DNA of 64,000 nucleotides from an uncultured Gemmatimonadales bacterium (lineage in GTDB: Bacteria > Gemmatimonadota > Gemmatimonadetes > Longimicrobiales > RSA9), in contig CAWAMW010000002.1 in NCBI GenBank assembly GCA_963783305.1, positions 32,001 to 96,000 on the forward strand, read 5' to 3'. Shown here piece by piece: positions 3,173 to 55,017 of this stretch. The notes under the pieces were generated by a model that was not told the DNA's origin, searched no databases, and saw only the letters and a program-made list of their open reading frames with translations. Position 1 is the stretch's first letter, and every line of letters starts with the position of its first letter. The position numbers and the translations under genes are program-made.

Positions 3173-4018
3173 ATGCCGATCACCGACATGCTGCCGTCCG
3201 GAGGGCGCGGATGGCGCCGCTGGGCCTTCGCCGCGGCGTCGATCCTGGTCCACGCCGCGCTCCTCGCCGCGCTCGTGGTCTCCACCCAGGCGGAGGAGGA
3301 GCCGCTGGAGGACGAGGGCGAAGAGGAGGTCACGTTCGTCGACATCCGACAGTTCGCGCCCCCGCCCCCACCCGCCCCGAGCTCGGCGCCCCAGCAGCCG
3401 GACCCCACACCCACGCAGCCGCAGACGCGACCGGAGCCGACGCCACAGCGCCCGGAGCCCCGGCCCCGGACGCCACCTCGAGCGACCGACATCGTGGAGC
3501 CGGTAGACTCGATACCCGACGAGCCGCTGGGCGAGACGCCGCCCCCGGCAGCGCCGCGGATCGAGCAGTCGGTGCAGACCGGTGCGGGGGCGCCCACGAG
3601 GGCGACGGGCGCCGAGGCTGGTGGTGTCGCGGGCGGTGTGGAGGGGGGGAAGGTCGGAGGCGTGGTGGGAGGACAGGGTGAGGAGGTCCCGGAGGAGGGC
3701 GGGACGTTCATCGCGGCGGTGGTGGATCGTCAGGCGGAGCTCACCAACCGGCGCGACCTGGCGCGGCTGATGACGCGGCTCTATCCGAGCGCGCTGCAGG
3801 ACATGGGCGTGGGCGGACGGGTCGTGGTGCAGTTCGTCGTGGGCACCAACGGCAGGATCGACATGGGGACCGTGAAGATCCTCTCCGCGAGCGATGACCA
3901 GTTCGCGGAGCCAACGCGGCAGGCGCTCCGGGAGTTCCGGTTCCGCCCCGCCAGGGTGGACGACAGGAACGTCCGGATGCTGACGCAGATGCCCATTGTT
4001 TGGGAAGTGGATGGCTGA
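3173..4018 (+). CDS. tonB: Energy transducer TonB family protein
   Basis: ATG 3173 after AGAGGA. N-terminal TM with S/H motif (ASILVHAALL), Pro-rich linker, TonB_C domain (YPSALQDMGVGGRVVVQFVVGTNG...FRFRPA). Confidence 0.88.
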   Translation: MPITDMLPSGGRGWRRWAFAAASILVHAALLAALVVSTQAEEEPLEDEGEEEVTFVDIRQFAPPPPPAPSSAPQQPDPTPTQPQTRPEPTPQRPEPRPRTPPRATDIVEPVDSIPDEPLGETPPPAAPRIEQSVQTGAGAPTRATGAEAGGVAGGVEGGKVGGVVGGQGEEVPEEGGTFIAAVVDRQAELTNRRDLARLMTRLYPSALQDMGVGGRVVVQFVVGTNGRIDMGTVKILSASDDQFAEPTRQALREFRFRPARVDDRNVRMLTQMPIVWEVDG

Positions 4019-47049: not shown

Positions 47050-48327
47050 TCAGCCGGCGCCGGGGCTCCCTCCCTCCTCGAAGAGGCTCCGCTGCTCCAG
47101 CACCATGTCGCGCTTGCGGAACTTGTCCAGGTACATGGCGCTGTCCGCGCGCCCGATGGCACTCGCGAGCGACTCGTTCTCCGCCCGCTGGACGCTCCCA
47201 ACGCTCACGTCGATGCCCATGCCGGAAAGGCCGGGCACCGGACCGATCTCGGACAGCGTCTCGGCAATCCTCTCCGCGAGCGTGCAGGCATCGGTGTGGG
47301 TGGATATGCACAGGAATTCGTCCCCACCCCAGCGGAATACAACGACGTGTTCCAGTCCGGCCGAGAGGTGAGCGGCCAGGTGGGCCAGGGCGGCATCGCC
47401 CGCCGCGTGACCGCGCTCGTCGTTGATGTCCTTGAGATTGTCCATGTCGAGCATTGCCACCGCGAGCGACGGCGACTCCGCCCAGCCACGGTCCCGGGCC
47501 AATTCCTCGAATGCGCGCCGATTGAACACCCCGGTCAGCTCGTCGTAGCGGGAGACGCGCCGCAACTGGTCGTGCGCCTCCTCCAGCTCCCGGTGCAGGA
47601 CGACCAGCCGGTCCTGCATGCTCCGGCTCGCGACGTGCCCCAGCGCGAACGCGAGCGAGAGGTGTCCGAACATGTCGACGTAACTGTTCAGCTGCACCAG
47701 TCGCAGGAGCGGGCCGCCGAGCGGCACGGCCACCGGAGCGCGGGTGAACGCTAAATTGTAGGTCAGCCAAAGCAGTGCGATGCCGGCAGCGGCGATGGCG
47801 GCGGGGCCGGTTCCGGCCAGGCGGTCGCCCCGGGGACCCAGCCGAGGCGTGAAGACGAGGGCGGTCGCGGCGAACAGCGGCACGATGATCGGCACCTGCC
47901 ACTGGACCAGACCGTACGGATCGTACGTCATGGCGGTCGACAGTGCCGCATACCCCAGGAGGGCCAGCGCGGCGCCCGTCAGCGCCGTTGCGGGCATCCG
48001 GAACCCTCTCAGCATGAGACCGCCCAGCAGCAGGAGCCCGGCATACATGAGCTTCCCGCCCTGGTAGACGAAGTCCAACGCGTTGCTCATGGCCGACGAA
48101 GACTGGAGCGCCTGGTGATCCAGGTCCGGCAGGAAGAGATACCGCGCGAGCATGGCGGCAATGGCCACCAGCGCGGCCACCCATGCCAGGGTCCAGACGA
48201 CCACCACCCCCCCGATGGCGCTGACCCGGCAGAGCAGCACGAACGCCAGCACGATCACGCTCAGAGCAGTGAGCTGTGCGGCAAGCCCGTGGACCGCCGA
48301 GAGTCCTCCGATATCGATGATGGACAT
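47050..48327 (-). CDS. Membrane-bound diguanylate cyclase
   Basis: About 8 TM segments, YDELTGVFNRR, DMDNLKDINDERGHAAGD, FRWGGDEF, ADSAMYLDK. Start uncertain. Confidence 0.9.
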   Translation of the reverse strand: MSIIDIGGLSAVHGLAAQLTALSVIVLAFVLLCRVSAIGGVVVVWTLAWVAALVAIAAMLARYLFLPDLDHQALQSSSAMSNALDFVYQGGKLMYAGLLLLGGLMLRGFRMPATALTGAALALLGYAALSTAMTYDPYGLVQWQVPIIVPLFAATALVFTPRLGPRGDRLAGTGPAAIAAAGIALLWLTYNLAFTRAPVAVPLGGPLLRLVQLNSYVDMFGHLSLAFALGHVASRSMQDRLVVLHRELEEAHDQLRRVSRYDELTGVFNRRAFEELARDRGWAESPSLAVAMLDMDNLKDINDERGHAAGDAALAHLAAHLSAGLEHVVVFRWGGDEFLCISTHTDACTLAERIAETLSEIGPVPGLSGMGIDVSVGSVQRAENESLASAIGRADSAMYLDKFRKRDMVLEQRSLFEEGGSPGAG

Positions 48328-48571
48328 GCTGCGCGCCTGAATGCGAACGACGGCGACGCTGCGAGGGCGGGGGGTCGAGCGCCGGCTCACAGTACGTGAA
48401 TTTCAGTACACAATATGCACCACCGCGCCGCTCGGCCATAGCGGCTCACCCGCGTGGATGCGCCGCACAGCATCGACGATCACGGCGAGCCGGCCCCTCC
48501 CCCTCTGGGGGGTCCCGCGACGTCAGGCGCCGTCAGCCGCCTCGTCGTCGTCCACCTCGAAAGGGGGACGG

Positions 48572-49468
48572 TCAGGGATCGGCCCGACCGTGGAATACGC
48601 TCGCCGAATCCAGCCCCGCCGCCTGGCCCTGGAGCTCGAGGAACTGCCCCACCACCAGGCGCGGGATCACCCGGCCGTACGAGGTGCTGCCCCCTTCACG
48701 GTACCGGTGCTGCCCCTGATTGACGCCGACAACACGGCCTTCCAGATCGAACGTCGGCCCACCGCTGACACCGGGGAAGAGGAAGAGGTCCACCTCGAGG
48801 ACGTTGGTGGACGGATCACCCGGCTCGAGTGTGCGGTACCCGCTGCTGAACCCCGCCGTGAACCGGCGAAACACCGTGTACTCGCTCGTCACGGCCGCCC
48901 GCGCGGTGTCCACCACCCCTCCCTCCGGGAGGCCGTACCCGATGGTGGCCAGCGGCCAACCCATGGGCACGTGGCCGTCGCTCCAGCGGAGAGGAACCAG
49001 CGAGGTGTCGGCAATCGCCAGCAGGCTGAGGTCGCGCTCCACGTCCAGCGCCAGCACCCGCGCCGGGTAGAGCGTGGATCCCGTGTCGGTCTGCACCAGG
49101 ACGTGCAGCCGCGGCACAAGCGTGGAGTCCCCTCGCACGACCACGTGCGCGTTGCTCAGCAGCACACCGTTTCGCCCCACCACGAAGGCCGTGCCCACCG
49201 GGCCGAACGCCGTGAGATCAACGCCGAGCGCCGGCTTGCTCCCCCAGACCGAGTGCACCGAGGACCGCACCCGCTCCGCCGCCACCGTCCAGTTCCCGAC
49301 CCCGGGCGTAGACTCCCCCTCCGACGGCCCGGCCTCACCCCCGGCGCAGCCCGCCCACAGCACCACCGCCCCCACGACCCACAGCCGATTGATCAGCCCC
49401 AAGGCCGCGCCCACGCCCGTCCGCGCGCGCCGCTCCCGCTTCCTCGTCCCGCTCGTGTTTGCGCTCAT
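48572..49468 (-). CDS. Trypsin-like (S1) serine protease, probable lipoprotein
   Basis: GTAFVV, SNAHVV, DLSLL, PGVSGGP catalytic triad motifs; LWAGC lipobox-like. Confidence 0.85.
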   Translation of the reverse strand: MSANTSGTRKRERRARTGVGAALGLINRLWVVGAVVLWAGCAGGEAGPSEGESTPGVGNWTVAAERVRSSVHSVWGSKPALGVDLTAFGPVGTAFVVGRNGVLLSNAHVVVRGDSTLVPRLHVLVQTDTGSTLYPARVLALDVERDLSLLAIADTSLVPLRWSDGHVPMGWPLATIGYGLPEGGVVDTARAAVTSEYTVFRRFTAGFSSGYRTLEPGDPSTNVLEVDLFLFPGVSGGPTFDLEGRVVGVNQGQHRYREGGSTSYGRVIPRLVVGQFLELQGQAAGLDSASVFHGRADP

Positions 49469-49496
49469 GATCGGGAATGGTACGCACGCACCCGCA

Positions 49497-49532
49497 CAAA
49501 AGAAAACGGGCTGCCATGAAGGCAGCCCGTTT
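49497..49532 (-). terminator. Intrinsic terminator
   Basis: AAACGGGCUGCC-uucau-GGCAGCCCGUUU whose U run continues UCUUUU on the minus strand. Confidence 0.85.
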
Positions 49533-49712
49533 AAACTCGGAGATCAGGGGCGAGGACAGCGCCCGGCCGGCGCACGGAAGGCGCCAAGGAAGCCGGAATC
49601 CCCCCCAGAATGACTTGCGTCGCGCTGTCGCTCGACACCCTTCACTCACGAGATATTTCCTGCTGTGAGGCACCCGAACTGGCGTGCCGCCACCATTGAC
49701 TATATGGTCAAC
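49497..49712 (-). ncRNA. Candidate ~215-nt structured small RNA or leader
   Basis: Bounded by a sigma70 promoter and an intrinsic terminator. Long stem, GAC-GCAA-GUC GNRA hairpin, CU-rich loops; no convincing ORF. Confidence 0.55.
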
Positions 49713-49747
49713 ACCCAGAGTCTAACACGCACTGATCGATGGGTCAA
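49696..49747. promoter_or_regulatory. Twin palindromic operators overlapping a minus-strand sigma70 promoter
   Basis: TTGAC-TATATG-GTCAA (49696-49711) and CTGAT-CGATGG-GTCAA (49732-49747). Minus-strand TTGACC (49747-49742)-17 nt-TAGACT (49724-49719) with extended TGn. Confidence 0.75.
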
Positions 49748-49757
49748 TAGGGGGCCA

Positions 49758-50378
49758 ATGCCAGGTCAGAGACTGCCGGAAGAAGAGCGCAGGGATGAGA
49801 TCCTGACGGGTGCGTTCCAGGTGGCGGTACGGGACAAGCTGCGGGGGCTGACCATGAGCGCGGTGGCGCAGGAGGCCGGGGTAAGCAAGGGGCTGGTCTT
49901 CTTCCATTTCGAAGGGAAGGAGGCGCTGCTGCTGGCGTTGCTGGACTGGTTGCTGGAGGGGGGTCCACGGGTGGAAGTGCCGCCGTCGCTGAACCTGGAT
50001 GAACGATCCCACCCGGCCCGGCGGCTGGTGGGGCTGCTGCGGCACCAGGTAGCGTTGCTGCCGCGTCGTCGTCAGCGGGTCGAGCTGTTCCTGGATTTCT
50101 GGGTGATGGGCACGACGCTGCCGGAGGCGCAGCTGCGGATCCGGGACGCGTTCGAGCGGTACCGTTCGGAGTTCCTGCCGTACACACGTCCGGTGGTGGA
50201 GGCGCTGCCGGGCCGGTTCGACGCCGACGGAGCGGAGGGTCTGTCGGGTGTGATCGTGAGCTTCATCCAGGGTTGTGCGCTGCAGCTGATCGCGGACCCG
50301 GACCGGTTCGATGTCGATCAGTACATGCGGGCGGTGGAAGGACTGGTATTGCGCGAGTACGGCCAGCTCTCCGACTGA
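49758..50378 (+). CDS. TetR/AcrR family regulator
   Basis: RRDEILTGAF..LTMSAVAQEAGVSKGLVFFHFEGKEALL HTH. Confidence 0.92.
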   Translation: MPGQRLPEEERRDEILTGAFQVAVRDKLRGLTMSAVAQEAGVSKGLVFFHFEGKEALLLALLDWLLEGGPRVEVPPSLNLDERSHPARRLVGLLRHQVALLPRRRQRVELFLDFWVMGTTLPEAQLRIRDAFERYRSEFLPYTRPVVEALPGRFDADGAEGLSGVIVSFIQGCALQLIADPDRFDVDQYMRAVEGLVLREYGQLSD

Positions 50379-51400
50379 TGCGACGGTTCGAGCCCGCGCG
50401 GTGGCTGTGGAACCCGCACGTACAGACGATCGCCGGCAAGCTGCTGCGGCCGGCGCTGGATGTGCCGCTGCGCAGGGAGCGCCTGGAGACTCCGGACGGC
50501 GATTTTCTGGACCTCGACCACGCTGGCGACGCCGATGGGATCGCGGAGTCGGCGCCGGTGGTGGTCGTGCTGCATGGACTCGAGGGTGCGAGCACGCGGC
50601 GGTATATGGGCACGACGTACCGGGCTCTCATGGCGCGCGGGCTCCGGCCGGTCGGCATGAACTTCCGCGGTTGCAGTGGTGAGCCGAACCGCACGGCGCG
50701 GGCGTACCATTCCGGGGAGACGGGAGACCTGCGATTCGTGCTGGATACGCTCCGCTCGCGGGCCGCCGGTCCCCTTGGACTGGTGGGCTATTCTCTCGGG
50801 GGCAACGTGACGCTGAAGTTTCTGGGCGAGGCGGGCGCATCGGGGCGCGTGCGAGGGGCGGGCGAGAGGGGCGAGGTGGGGGAGGCGGCGGAGGACCTGG
50901 TCTCCGCGGCTGCCGCTGTGTCGATCCCATTCGACCTGCGCGCCGGAGCCCGCGCACTGGAAGATTCGGTAATGGGTCGCTGGATCTACACCCGCTACTT
51001 CATGCGCAATCTGCGCCCGAAGATGCTGGCGAAGGGCGCGCTGGCGGCGAGCGCATGCGACCTGGACGCCGTGCGGCGCTCCCGTACCATCCGCGAGTTC
51101 GACGACGCCGTCACCGCCCCGATCTTCGGCTTCGAAAGCGCCGCGGGCTATTACGCCAGCGAGAGCTCTCATCAGTATATCCCCGGCATTCGAGTGCCGA
51201 CCCTCGTGGTCCACTCGCGGGACGACCCGTTCCTCCCCGCCGACGCCATCCCCGAGGCCGCCCTCGCCGCGAATCCCGCCACCACAGCCCTCATCACCGA
51301 GCGCGGCGGCCACCAGGGCTACATAGCGGGGTCCATCCTTCGTCCGCGCTTCTGGGTGGAGGAGGTGGTGGCGGACTTCATGAGGGCGCGGCTCACGTAG
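50378..51400 (+). CDS. YheT-family alpha/beta hydrolase
   Basis: NPHVQTI, TPDGDFLDLD, LHGLEG, NFRGCSGEPN..AYHSGETGD, GYSLGGN, DDPF, GGHQGY; TGATG coupling to TetR. Confidence 0.92.
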   Translation: MRRFEPARWLWNPHVQTIAGKLLRPALDVPLRRERLETPDGDFLDLDHAGDADGIAESAPVVVVLHGLEGASTRRYMGTTYRALMARGLRPVGMNFRGCSGEPNRTARAYHSGETGDLRFVLDTLRSRAAGPLGLVGYSLGGNVTLKFLGEAGASGRVRGAGERGEVGEAAEDLVSAAAAVSIPFDLRAGARALEDSVMGRWIYTRYFMRNLRPKMLAKGALAASACDLDAVRRSRTIREFDDAVTAPIFGFESAAGYYASESSHQYIPGIRVPTLVVHSRDDPFLPADAIPEAALAANPATTALITERGGHQGYIAGSILRPRFWVEEVVADFMRARLT

Positions 51401-51685: not shown

Positions 51686-52606
51686 ATGCCGACCACGACC
51701 GTTCGATCCCCGAGATCGCCATCCCCGTCCGCGCGCAGCGACGAGCGGCTGCGTATCGCCCTCCCCAACAAGGGCCGGTTGGCCGATGAGGCGCTGGAGC
51801 TCCTGGCCCGCGCCGGCCTCGAGCCCTCGGCCACCCACCAGCGCTCGCTGCGCGCGGAGCTCGGCGACGACTTCACCGCCCTCTTCGTCCGCGCCCGGGA
51901 CATCCCCGAGTTCGTGGCGGACGGTGCGGCGGACCTGGGGATCACCGGGAGCGACCTGGTGACGGAGTCGGTGCGCTCGCTGGACACGCTGCTGGCGCTC
52001 GGCTTCGGCCGCTGCCGGCTGGCGGTGGCGGTGCGCGACGAGACGGAGCTGGCGGACGCGGCCGGGCTTCCCGACGGAACCCGCGTCGCCACATCGTTCC
52101 CGCGCACCGCGGAGCGGTTCTTCGCGGAGCGGGGCCGCAGCGTGGAGCTCGTGCCGGTGAGCGGCGCCGCGGAGATCGCGCCGCACATCGGGGTGGCGGA
52201 CGTGATCGTGGACCTGGTGAGCACCGGGTCGACACTGAAGATGAACGGGCTGCGCGAGTTGGAGACCATCGCGGAGGCGGAGGCGGTGCTGGTGAGCCGA
52301 ACGGGCTTCACGCAGGGCGAGTGGGGCCCGCGGACTCTGGAGCTGGTGGCGGCGCTCGAGTCCGTGCTGCGGGCCCGGGGCAAGCGGTACCTCATGGCCA
52401 ACGTGCCGCGTGCGGCCCTCGATCGGGTGAAGGAGGTGCTGCCCGGCCTGAACGGTCCCACCATCGTCGATGTCATGAACGCCGGCGAGCACGTGGCCGC
52501 GCACGCGGTGGTGGACCGCGCGGAAGTCTACCGTACCATCGCTGCGCTGAAGGCGCTCGGCGCCGAGGGGATCCTGGTCACCAAGATCGAGAGGCTGATG
52601 CCATGA
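51686..52606 (+). CDS. hisG: ATP phosphoribosyltransferase (long form)
   Basis: LRIALPNKGRL, VRARDIPEFV..GAADLGITGSD, ADVIVDLVSTGSTL, C-terminal regulatory domain (PGLNGPTI...GAEGILV); AGGAG SD. Confidence 0.96.
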   Translation: MPTTTVRSPRSPSPSARSDERLRIALPNKGRLADEALELLARAGLEPSATHQRSLRAELGDDFTALFVRARDIPEFVADGAADLGITGSDLVTESVRSLDTLLALGFGRCRLAVAVRDETELADAAGLPDGTRVATSFPRTAERFFAERGRSVELVPVSGAAEIAPHIGVADVIVDLVSTGSTLKMNGLRELETIAEAEAVLVSRTGFTQGEWGPRTLELVAALESVLRARGKRYLMANVPRAALDRVKEVLPGLNGPTIVDVMNAGEHVAAHAVVDRAEVYRTIAALKALGAEGILVTKIERLMP

Positions 52607-55017
52607 TCCCCATCCAGCGACTCACGTCCCTCGACGACGTCGCCCTCGACCGCCTCCTGGTCCGCGGCCGCACCGGCGACCCGAACGTGACGGCCACCGT
52701 GGCCGGTCTCCTCGCCGAGATCCGCCGGGACGGCGACCGTGCCCTTCGCACGCAGACCGCCCGTTTCGACGAGGTGGAACTGGACGCGCTCGAGGTGCCG
52801 CGTGATGCGTGGATCCGCGCCCTCGACGCGCTCGACCCGGCGCTACGCTCGGCGCTGGAATCCTCGGCGCTGGCCATCCGTCGATTCCACGCCGCACAGG
52901 CGCCCGCGCCACTGGAGCTGGAGGTGGCGCCGGGACTCGTGCTCGGCCGGCGACCCGACCCACTCCGCACCGTCGGCGTGTACGCACCCGGCGGGCGGGC
53001 GGCCTACCCCAGCAGCGTGCTCATGGGCGTGGTCCCGGCCCGGGTGGCGGGTGTCGACCAGGTGGTCGTCTGCTCACCGCCCGCGACCAACGGGCTTCCC
53101 TCTCCGCTCGTCATGGCCGCGTGCGCCGTGGCCGGCGCGGATCGCCTCTTCGCCCTCGGCGGCACCGCAGCCATCGGCGCCCTCGCCTTCGGCACTGAGA
53201 CGGTGCCAGCCGTCGACCGCATCGTCGGGCCCGGGAACGCCTACGTGATGGAGGCGAAGCTCCAGGTGAGCACCGTCACCGGCATCGACTCGCCCGCGGG
53301 ACCCTCCGAGCTCCTCGTGATCGCGGATGAGAGCGCGGATGGGGAGACGGTGGCCACCGAGTTGATCGCTCAGGCCGAGCACGACCCGGACGCCGCGGTG
53401 GTACTGGTCGCCACCAGCCTCTCGGTGGCCGAGGACACCGCGCGGGCGCTGGAGCATCTGGTTCCGGCCACCCCGCGCCGGGAGATCGTGGAGGCCTCGC
53501 TGGCCACCGCCGGCGCCCTTCTCGTCGCCGACTCCATGACCCTGGCCACCGAGTTCGCCGAGCGCTACGCCCCGGAACACCTGCTGGTGCTGACCGACGC
53601 GCCACGAGAGACGCTCGCGGCCGTACGGTGCGCCGGCACCGTATTCCTGGGGCCGCGCAGCTCCGTGGCGTTCGGCGACTACGCCACGGGCGCCAACCAC
53701 GTCCTGCCCACGGGCGGGCTCGCGCGCTCGTACAGCGGCCTGTCTGTCGATGACTTCGTCCGCTGGACCACGTGGCAGGAGGTGGGTCCTGGCGCCGCCG
53801 CGCGGCTCGCCGACGTGGCGGGGCGACTCGCCGACGCCGAGGGGCTCCCGGCGCACGCCGCCGCCGCCCGCCGCGCCGGGACCTACGATGGCAGCGTCGA
53901 GACCACTCGCCCGGAGCTGGAGCCACGGCCGGCGTATCGTACCATGCGGCGCTACGACCCCGCCCGACCGGAGCTGGATCTGGACCTCAGCGCCAACACG
54001 AACCTCTGGGGCGCGTGCCCGGCGGCGTTGGACGCGCTGAGCGCGCCGCGGCCGCTCACCAGCTATCCGGCCGTGTACGCGGATCCGCTCAAGTCGGCCA
54101 TCGCCCGCGCCTGGACCGTGGACATCGATCAGGTCGTCACCGGCTGCGGCTCCGATGACCTCATCGATTCGGCGATCCGCGCGTTCTGCGGGCCGTCCGC
54201 CACCGTCGCCTTCCCCGCGCCCACCTTCCCGATGGCGGACGCGTTCACGCGGATGAACGATGCGACGCCGCGCCCTGTGGCGCTCGGGCCGGATGGCGAT
54301 CTGGACCAAACCGCCATGGCCTCACTGGCCGCCGCGGATCTCGTCTACCTGTGCCGGCCCAACAACCCAACGGGCGCACTGATCCCCCGTGACCGGGTGA
54401 GGGATCTCCTGGAACGGGCGCGCGGCCTCGTGCTCATCGACGAGGCCTACGGCGAATACGCCGGCGAGTCGCTGCTGGACCTGGCGCTCGGGTCCGGCCG
54501 CGCCGTGGTGCTGCGCACGTTCTCCAAGGCCTACGGGCTGGCGTCGCTCCGGGTCGGCTACGCGCTCGGGCCCCAGCCGCTGATCTCCGCCATCGAGCTG
54601 TCCCGCGGGCCGTACAAGGTGAACGGCCCCGCGGAGCAGGCTGCTGCCGCAGCCATGACTGGTGGCGCGGCATGGGTCCGCGAGATCGTGACCGAGACCC
54701 GAACGAATCGCGAGCGGCTCGCTGGCGAGCTTCGGAGCCGCGGCCTGCGAGTCCACGAGAGCGCCGCCAACTTCGTCCTCTCCGATGTGGCACCCGGGAT
54801 GAGCCCGACCATCAAGGCCGGACTGGCGGAGCGCGGCGTCGGTGTGCGCGCGTTCGAGGATCCGGCCGGCGACTCCCTCCGCATCACCATCGCACCGTGG
54901 CCGCTGATGGAGCGATTCCTGGACGCGCTCGACGAGGTGCTCGCGAGCGCCGTGGGCCCGGCGGCTTCCACCGGATCGGCACGCGCACTGACCGCCGACC
55001 TGGAGGCGCTGCCATGA
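52603..55017 (+). CDS. hisD: Fused histidinol dehydrogenase / histidinol-phosphate aminotransferase (HisD-HisC), 804 aa
   Basis: HisD motifs VGVYAPGG.AAYPSS, GPGNAYV, PAGPSE, QAEHD, YAPEHL, GDYATGANHVLPT, EGLPAHA. In-frame HisC motifs LSANTN, GCGSDDLI, CRPNNPTG, IDEAYGEY, LRTFSKAYGLASLRVGY. Confidence 0.93.
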   Translation: MIPIQRLTSLDDVALDRLLVRGRTGDPNVTATVAGLLAEIRRDGDRALRTQTARFDEVELDALEVPRDAWIRALDALDPALRSALESSALAIRRFHAAQAPAPLELEVAPGLVLGRRPDPLRTVGVYAPGGRAAYPSSVLMGVVPARVAGVDQVVVCSPPATNGLPSPLVMAACAVAGADRLFALGGTAAIGALAFGTETVPAVDRIVGPGNAYVMEAKLQVSTVTGIDSPAGPSELLVIADESADGETVATELIAQAEHDPDAAVVLVATSLSVAEDTARALEHLVPATPRREIVEASLATAGALLVADSMTLATEFAERYAPEHLLVLTDAPRETLAAVRCAGTVFLGPRSSVAFGDYATGANHVLPTGGLARSYSGLSVDDFVRWTTWQEVGPGAAARLADVAGRLADAEGLPAHAAAARRAGTYDGSVETTRPELEPRPAYRTMRRYDPARPELDLDLSANTNLWGACPAALDALSAPRPLTSYPAVYADPLKSAIARAWTVDIDQVVTGCGSDDLIDSAIRAFCGPSATVAFPAPTFPMADAFTRMNDATPRPVALGPDGDLDQTAMASLAAADLVYLCRPNNPTGALIPRDRVRDLLERARGLVLIDEAYGEYAGESLLDLALGSGRAVVLRTFSKAYGLASLRVGYALGPQPLISAIELSRGPYKVNGPAEQAAAAAMTGGAAWVREIVTETRTNRERLAGELRSRGLRVHESAANFVLSDVAPGMSPTIKAGLAERGVGVRAFEDPAGDSLRITIAPWPLMERFLDALDEVLASAVGPAASTGSARALTADLEALP

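Follow-up and report, generated by a model that had tools for sequence, protein, structure and literature searches.

The 289-bp gap between a minus-strand peptidase gene and a plus-strand tetR gene (positions 49469–49757 of the window, i.e. the whole 64,000-nt stretch of Gemmatimonadales DNA analysed) raises the question of whether it holds only the control signals of its two neighbours or also a gene of its own. A first-pass annotation, made by eye, had proposed the latter: a structured small RNA on the minus strand, transcribed away from the tetR-hydrolase operon and under the control of TetR, with an attenuating leader of the protease gene named as the alternative. Whether such an RNA exists, whether TetR controls it, and whether it acts independently of the gene downstream are taken below as separate questions. 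The elements, their conservation and covariation, the strand and the association of the operators with TetR were all computed from the DNA sequences.

The tetR gene (49758–50378, plus strand) codes for a protein of 206 aa with Pfam TetR_N and TetR_C_6 domains; its assignment also rests on its homologues, whose source labels read Gemmatimonadota or Longimicrobiales. It is followed by a gene for a YheT-like alpha/beta hydrolase (50378–51400, plus strand), the ATG of which overlaps the tetR stop codon (TGATG). The hydrolase scored 247.8 bits against PRK10985, under the 267-bit cut-off. On the other side of the gap lies a gene for a trypsin-like serine peptidase (48572–49468, minus strand; Pfam Trypsin_2, E = 1.2e-19), hereafter the protease. 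Its start codon was set from the translation, in which a lipobox read by eye suggests a signal peptide of the lipoprotein type. The other neighbours in the window are genes for an AMP-binding enzyme and a GGDEF protein, hisG, and hisD/hisC. The histidinol dehydrogenase and class I/II aminotransferase domains of the latter pair (hisD, hisC) occupy a single 898-aa frame (52321–55017, plus strand), which may be a fusion or may comprise two genes that no stop codon separates.

An alignment of 37 TetR homologues served as the query for a scan of genome contigs, which returned 80 loci (L001–L080). Thirty-six of them (L001–L036) contained relatives of this TetR (tblastn E ≤8e-31, identity 38–68%); many homologues with 70–83% identity are known, on contigs other than those of the 80 loci. 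Of the 80 loci, only L001–L004 matched the intergenic region in blastn and nhmmer searches (nhmmer E from 3.7e-25 to 5.3e-23). L037–L080 were searched by these two methods only, and gave no match. The RNA is thus carried by four of the 36 loci with a tetR orthologue from Longimicrobiales or Gemmatimonadota MAGs, and these four contain the closest TetR relatives of the set (64–68% identity). Beside their orthologous tetR they all have the element, with compensatory changes in its pairs. The gene order protease, RNA, tetR, hydrolase is common to the window and L001–L004 and was seen in no other of the 36 loci; hisG comes next in three of L001–L004. The GGDEF diguanylate cyclase gene (47050–48390, minus strand), which follows just 3′ of the protease gene on the same strand, is present in the window only; it was not found downstream of the protease gene in L001–L004, and therefore lies outside the conserved unit. 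The five sequences (those of the window and L001–L004) could be aligned from the promoter through the terminator. A covariance model built from them (R1) recovered, in the 307,893 bases of the window and L001–L036, its five training sequences only (107–129 bits); the next-best match scored 15.1 bits. A blastn search of a plasmid collection gave no match to the RNA.

Two of the relatives showed additional features between the RNA and the protease gene. A minus-strand ORF of 309 aa (L003:2762–3691), with a signal-peptide-like N-terminus, is found at this place in L003 only; it had no Pfam or NCBIfam match. The corresponding gap of L004 is 577 nt long from the RNA terminator to the protease gene, and part of it is occupied by tandem repeats, 9.8 copies of the 13-nt unit GTGCCTGTGCCCT with 93% matches (L004:3518–3644).

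A promoter scanner recognised one sigma-70-like site between positions 48500 and 51000, on the minus strand, against a mean of 0.2 in shuffled sequences. This sole site is the near-consensus TTGACC-17-TAGACT promoter with a TG extension that the first-pass annotation had picked out. It spans positions 49719–49747, with the -35 hexamer TTGACC at 49747–49742, a spacer of 17 nt, and an extended -10 element, TGtTAGACT, of which the -10 hexamer lies at 49724–49719. The scanner picked up the promoter on the RNA strand in all five loci, that of L003 deviating in its -10 hexamer (TAGCAT, without the TG). Transcription is predicted to start near position 49712 and to end at 49495, which would give a minus-strand transcript of about 218 nt (206–210 nt in the relatives). 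Its 3′-end would be formed by an intrinsic terminator (49495–49532, minus strand) composed of a GC-rich stem (49532–49504) with 12 pairs and a 5-nt loop, followed by UUUUCUUUU and thus by a U4CU4 tail. The scanner placed the stem where a 12-bp terminator with a U tail had been proposed. It called a terminator in three of the five loci; on folding, the terminator hairpin had a pair probability of 0.96–1.0 in all five (0.96 in the window). The element therefore keeps its own promoter and, as judged by folding, its own intrinsic terminator in every locus where it occurs.

The RNA is predicted to fold strongly. The segment 49712–49495 had a folding energy of -106.8 kcal/mol, compared with -82.3 ± 4.7 kcal/mol for shuffled sequences (z = -5.18); all 200 shuffles were less stable. 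The features that had been read by eye were all present in the computed fold. A 5′ hairpin with a GGCAC/GUGCC stem (49665–49693, minus strand) is the second from the 5′-end; it is variable in sequence, with some hairpin at this place in all five loci. A three-way-junction domain follows (49546–49640, minus strand; defined with RNAalifold and pair counts), closed by the long interrupted stem P1, in which positions 49640–49622 pair with 49562–49546. Within this domain, the inner core (49560–49621, minus strand; 62 nt) contains three parts: the P2 hairpin (49621–49612), GAC-GCAA-GUC in the window and with a GNRA tetraloop, GCAA or GAAA, among the five sequences; the junction strand J2/3 with an invariant tract of seven G residues (G7, 49606–49600); and the P3/P3b arm (49596–49563), which has an internal loop UUCCU and a hairpin loop nUUCCnU, each with an invariant UUCC (the UUCCUU and CUUCCGU loops of the window). 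Of the columns of the inner core, 84% were invariant in the five sequences, compared with 57%, 62% and 29% for the first, second and third codon positions of tetR.

Each of the five sequences, when folded singly, gave the same architecture. RNAalifold predicted 65 pairs, 13 of which had changed on both sides among the five sequences, and the pairs of the terminator stem also covaried among the relatives. In a core of 112 columns, 97.4% of the cells of the 31 named pairs could pair, against 39–52% when the 3′ partners were slid. Six of the 31 pairs showed double changes, and none of 500 shuffles attained the covariation score, although these shuffles ignore relatedness. Since the sequences are few (five, all related) and the control is blind to relatedness, the covariation is suggestive but statistically insecure. 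The strand could be read from the G-U pairs: in the sense of the RNA, 151 of 155 cells are paired, 15 of them as G-U, and in the antisense 137 of 155. As the G-U cells pair in one sense only, the RNA is assigned to the minus strand. That a structured RNA is encoded on this strand is, on this evidence, very probable.

A further G run was observed outside the transcript. In all five loci, 5–7 G residues precede the tetR start codon (at 49758 in the window and near positions 3990–4000 in L001–L004), resembling the invariant G7 of the RNA junction, which is followed by AUUCC.

The first-pass annotation could not match the RNA to a known family by eye, and the database searches led to the same outcome. 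A scan of the whole window with Rfam 15 at the gathering thresholds gave no match. In E-value mode, over positions 49300–49900, only the terminator hairpin resembled known models, both below threshold: ctRNA_p42d (20.6 bits, threshold 50) and suhB (17.7 bits, threshold 41). In L001–L004, the sole Rfam match touching the element was SorY in L004 (21.1 bits against 111; E = 3.5), which spans the 3′ strand of P1, the linker and the terminator. Membership of a known Rfam family was therefore rejected, nothing having scored above a gathering threshold in the five loci. Literature searches found neither a published account of this RNA nor any described regulatory RNA in the Gemmatimonadota. The RNA would represent a new family, with an unusual three-way-junction core.

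The sequences around the predicted start contain two palindromes, which bear on the control of the RNA by TetR. Candidate operator A, TTGACTATATGGTCAA, covers positions 49696–49711, i.e. +1 to +16 of the predicted transcript, in which it also forms the first 5′ hairpin. It agrees perfectly with TTGACC-N4-GGTCAA in L001–L003; in L004 it has one mismatch to this motif and none to TTGAYC-N4-GRTCAA. Candidate operator B, CTGATCGATGGGTCAA on the plus strand, covers positions 49732–49747, overlaps the -35 region and the spacer of the RNA promoter, and lies 11–26 nt upstream of the tetR ATG. It is a degenerate version of TTGAYC-N4-GRTCAA that is kept at the same place in the relatives, with at most one mismatch in L001 and L003, and with 2–3 mismatches to the stricter TTGACC-N4-GGTCAA in L002 and L004. 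Two palindromes of the type TTGAC-N6-GTCAA had been proposed at these sites. Only the one at 49696–49711 fits this description with at most one mismatch, and the 36-bp spacing and the coverage of the -35 region and start site hold, but the one at 49732–49747 is degenerate; the relatives show both to be versions of TTGAYC-N4-GRTCAA, 36 bp apart.

This motif, with at most one mismatch allowed, occurs 46 times in the 243,893 bases of L001–L036. Thirty-seven occurrences lie at most 130 nt upstream of tetR, usually in pairs, and the other nine lie 1.4–1.85 kb upstream of it, in six Longimicrobium loci; in the two of these six that were inspected (L008 and L009), the distal operators immediately precede a desaturase gene, itself located upstream of tetR. 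No match was found elsewhere in L001–L036. The palindromes accompany this TetR subfamily in 30 of the 36 loci, 26 of which lack the RNA, with a spacing of 36 bp in the clade that has the RNA and of 31 or 27 bp elsewhere. Since all 46 matches are on the upstream side of tetR and none elsewhere, the palindrome is, by phylogenetic footprinting, the operator of this TetR subfamily, to which the protein would bind. In L028, a plus-strand promoter for a tetR-desaturase unit, TTGACC-17-TAAATT, is embedded in the same operator pair, mirroring the arrangement of the RNA promoter. At the operators of L027 (31-bp spacing), no promoter was picked up by the scanner. Nor did it recognise a plus-strand tetR promoter in any of the five RNA-bearing loci, which leaves the control of the divergent region incompletely explained. 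With operators lying on the RNA promoter, and with promoter, terminator and fold kept in five loci out of five, the proposal of a TetR-controlled RNA divergent from tetR-hydrolase stood up well, and control of the RNA by TetR is likely.

The relation of the RNA to the protease gene is less clear-cut. The RNA could be the leader of a protease operon, its structured domain and terminator gating read-through of a TetR-controlled transcript. It would then be a riboswitch, an attenuator dependent on a protein, or a terminator-resistance element of the put or EAR type; in a bolder version, a put-like element would let the polymerase pass its own terminator into the protease gene. Promoter, structured RNA, terminator and ORF do follow one another on one strand in all five loci, with a protease gene always downstream, and the near-invariant junction with its GNRA loop resembles a ligand- or protein-binding core. 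The protease ATG of the window lacks an obvious Shine-Dalgarno sequence and is only 26 nt from the terminator tail. In none of the five loci did the scanner recognise a further sigma-70-like site downstream of the terminator and ahead of the next ORF, which suits read-through. The first-pass annotation had noted a TACCAT hexamer 8 nt before the protease ATG as a possible separate promoter; the hexamer is present, but it has no matching -35 region, was passed over by the scanner, and is not conserved.

Against a leader stands the lack of any conserved pairing that competes with the terminator. When the transcript was cut before the 3′ half of the terminator, no consistent antiterminator was found in the five loci: the 5′ half gained just 0.7–5.7 kcal/mol from other partners, compared with about 20–25 kcal/mol for the hairpin itself, and these partners varied by locus and were never within the conserved core. 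P1 is long and stable and its 3′-end lies at least 10 nt before the terminator, with no overlap, while the linker between them varies in length and sequence. The distances from the terminator to the protease start in the five loci were 26, 61, 6–156, 577 (L004) and about 990 nt; further, the first downstream ORF is a different one in L003, and the gap of L004 contains the repeat array. The tight linkage is instead that of the RNA with tetR, through their common operator-promoter block, in five of five loci. The absence of an antiterminator, together with a distance to the protease gene that ranges from 26 to about 990 nt, therefore favours a stand-alone RNA over a cis leader, if by a modest degree. 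Of the alternative put forward by the first-pass annotation, an attenuating leader for the protease, the part that holds is that no other consensus promoter precedes the protease gene, and the missing antiterminator and the inconstant distance speak against it; a leader now seems rather unlikely.

The reading that best accommodates these results is that of a stand-alone regulatory RNA of about 218 nt, repressed by TetR and acting in trans, to which a probability of roughly one half may be given. The RNA would be transcribed from the near-consensus promoter, the -35 region of which lies in operator B and the start site in operator A. We infer that the neighbouring TetR keeps the RNA repressed, pending release by a ligand. 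The strong intrinsic terminator would stop the transcript ahead of the protease gene, and the RNA would fold into two 5′ hairpins and the P1 stem closing a three-way junction formed by the GNRA hairpin, the G7 strand and the UUCC-loop arm. The near-invariant 62-nt junction would be the working part, and the RNA would act at a distance from its gene. In the likeliest mode, its UUCC loops would pair with purine-rich, Shine-Dalgarno-like sites in mRNAs, with the specific binding of a protein as a close second. A duplex test against the translation start of tetR gave, in four of the five loci, nothing better than random 70-mers, and in L002 a duplex within the best 1.75% of the background, in a test that is weakened by the high GC content.

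A stand-alone RNA under TetR control might also work through its folded junction rather than by pairing, binding or sequestering a protein or a small molecule. The pattern of conservation is in keeping with this. Of the 14 pairs in the inner stems P2 and P3, 12 are invariant, whereas P1 covaries freely, with five of its 17 pairs changed on both sides and only six invariant (Fisher p = 0.009); of the unpaired inner columns, 24 of 31 are invariant, including 14 of the 15 in the G7 junction strand. GNRA loops usually make tertiary contacts, and the tetraloop of P2 is kept as one of this type. Such near-invariant inner stems would fit a constraint from a protein, a ligand or a tertiary fold at least as well as one from pairing. 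No gene for a partner protein is consistently adjacent, however, other than tetR and those for the hydrolase and the protease, and reading the sequence by eye revealed no CsrB-like repeats of a binding motif. An RNA that works by its junction, with no pairing, is a tentative proposal, and we would hold it to be improbable.

The genes that adjoin tetR where the RNA is missing may point to lipids as the signal. A fatty-acid desaturase gene stands beside tetR in 28 of the 32 RNA-less loci (e.g. L020:4612–5859 and L008:2216–3415), downstream of tetR in most and upstream in the six Longimicrobium loci; it is missing from L013, L023, L025 and L032, not all of which are full-length, some being short loci. 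In the RNA-less loci the operator pair, where seen, was ahead of the first gene. By contrast, tetR has no desaturase neighbour in the five RNA loci, and the 64-kb window contains no such gene. A comparable arrangement is provided by DesT, a member of the TetR family. In Pseudomonas aeruginosa, DesT is described as an acyl-CoA-responsive repressor of the desCB desaturase operon (PMC10634369). The TetR subfamily studied here resembles it in adjoining a desaturase gene in RNA-less relatives, most with an upstream palindromic operator pair, and differs in that the clade with the RNA has no desaturase at the locus and has the operators on the RNA promoter instead. DesT was absent from the PDB sequence matches of this TetR, so that homology beyond the family level is unsupported; the likeness is therefore one of regulatory logic, not demonstrated homology. 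By this analogy, the ligand of the TetR is probably lipid-like. It is conceivable, if doubtful, that in a TetR circuit that senses lipids a folded effector RNA of a new class took over from the desaturase as the principal output. If so, the junction would control a desaturase or envelope genes at other places in the genome, or would itself bind a protein or metabolite.

Translation of the five sequences in six frames revealed no common start codon or frame, and there were 1-nt indels within the core, the invariance of which was uniform rather than periodic by codon position. A small-protein gene was rejected on these grounds; no conserved ORF explains the conservation of the region. That there is no functional RNA at all, the conservation reflecting sites in the DNA, the remnant of a decaying gene or a gene for a small protein, is highly improbable: high-GC genomes yield many open frames, a GTG ORF (49673–49335) traverses the region and a frame of L002 is open through the whole element, but the 112-aa ORF had no Pfam match, no frame or start codon is shared across the indel-bearing core, conservation exceeds that of the first and second codon positions of tetR, and the pairs are kept by compensatory changes, with G-U pairs that suit one strand only.

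The proposed stand-alone, TetR-controlled RNA has parallels among known systems. In the OxyR/OxyS, GcvA/GcvB and SgrR/SgrS pairs, a small RNA is encoded divergently from the transcription factor that controls it. As in these, the present RNA lies back-to-back with its regulator, with sites in a common control region, and has its own intrinsic terminator. OxyR, GcvA and SgrR, however, are activators of the LysR or SgrR type, whereas the regulator here is of the TetR type, and its two operators are positioned as for a repressor. Neither in sequence nor in fold does the RNA resemble OxyS, GcvB or SgrS (no Rfam match), and its three-way junction differs from the typical small RNA made simply of a seed and a terminator.

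In Vibrio, the small-RNA gene qrr1 depends on sigma-54 and LuxO, and is not known to form a conserved divergent module with luxT. LuxT, a TetR-family protein, is described as a repressor of this gene (PMC8043402, PMC8764538). The two cases have in common a TetR-family repressor on the promoter of a small RNA; the RNAs themselves are unrelated. Both divergent pairs of regulator and small RNA and the repression of a small-RNA gene by a TetR-family protein, as for LuxT and qrr1, are thus already known.

The riboswitches that terminate transcription provide a third comparison, the purine and TPP classes having three-way junctions. Like them, the present RNA combines a conserved multi-stem junction with an intrinsic terminator on its 3′ side, and an ORF lies downstream. 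It differs in the lack of overlap between terminator and antiterminator, in the great length of P1 (17 or more pairs), and in a downstream gene and distance that are not constant; further, no Rfam riboswitch model matches it.

Almost nothing is known of regulatory RNAs in the Gemmatimonadota and Longimicrobiales. The RNA described here would give these groups a first well-defined case, for which promoter, terminator and fold are predicted and the operators of a candidate regulator have been mapped. It would also indicate that a repressor-operator module has been rewired, the promoter of tetR-desaturase in the relatives having its mirror image here in the promoter of an RNA gene. Finally, the near-invariant 62-nt junction offers a concrete object for biochemistry on the binding partners, ligands and targets that such an RNA may have.
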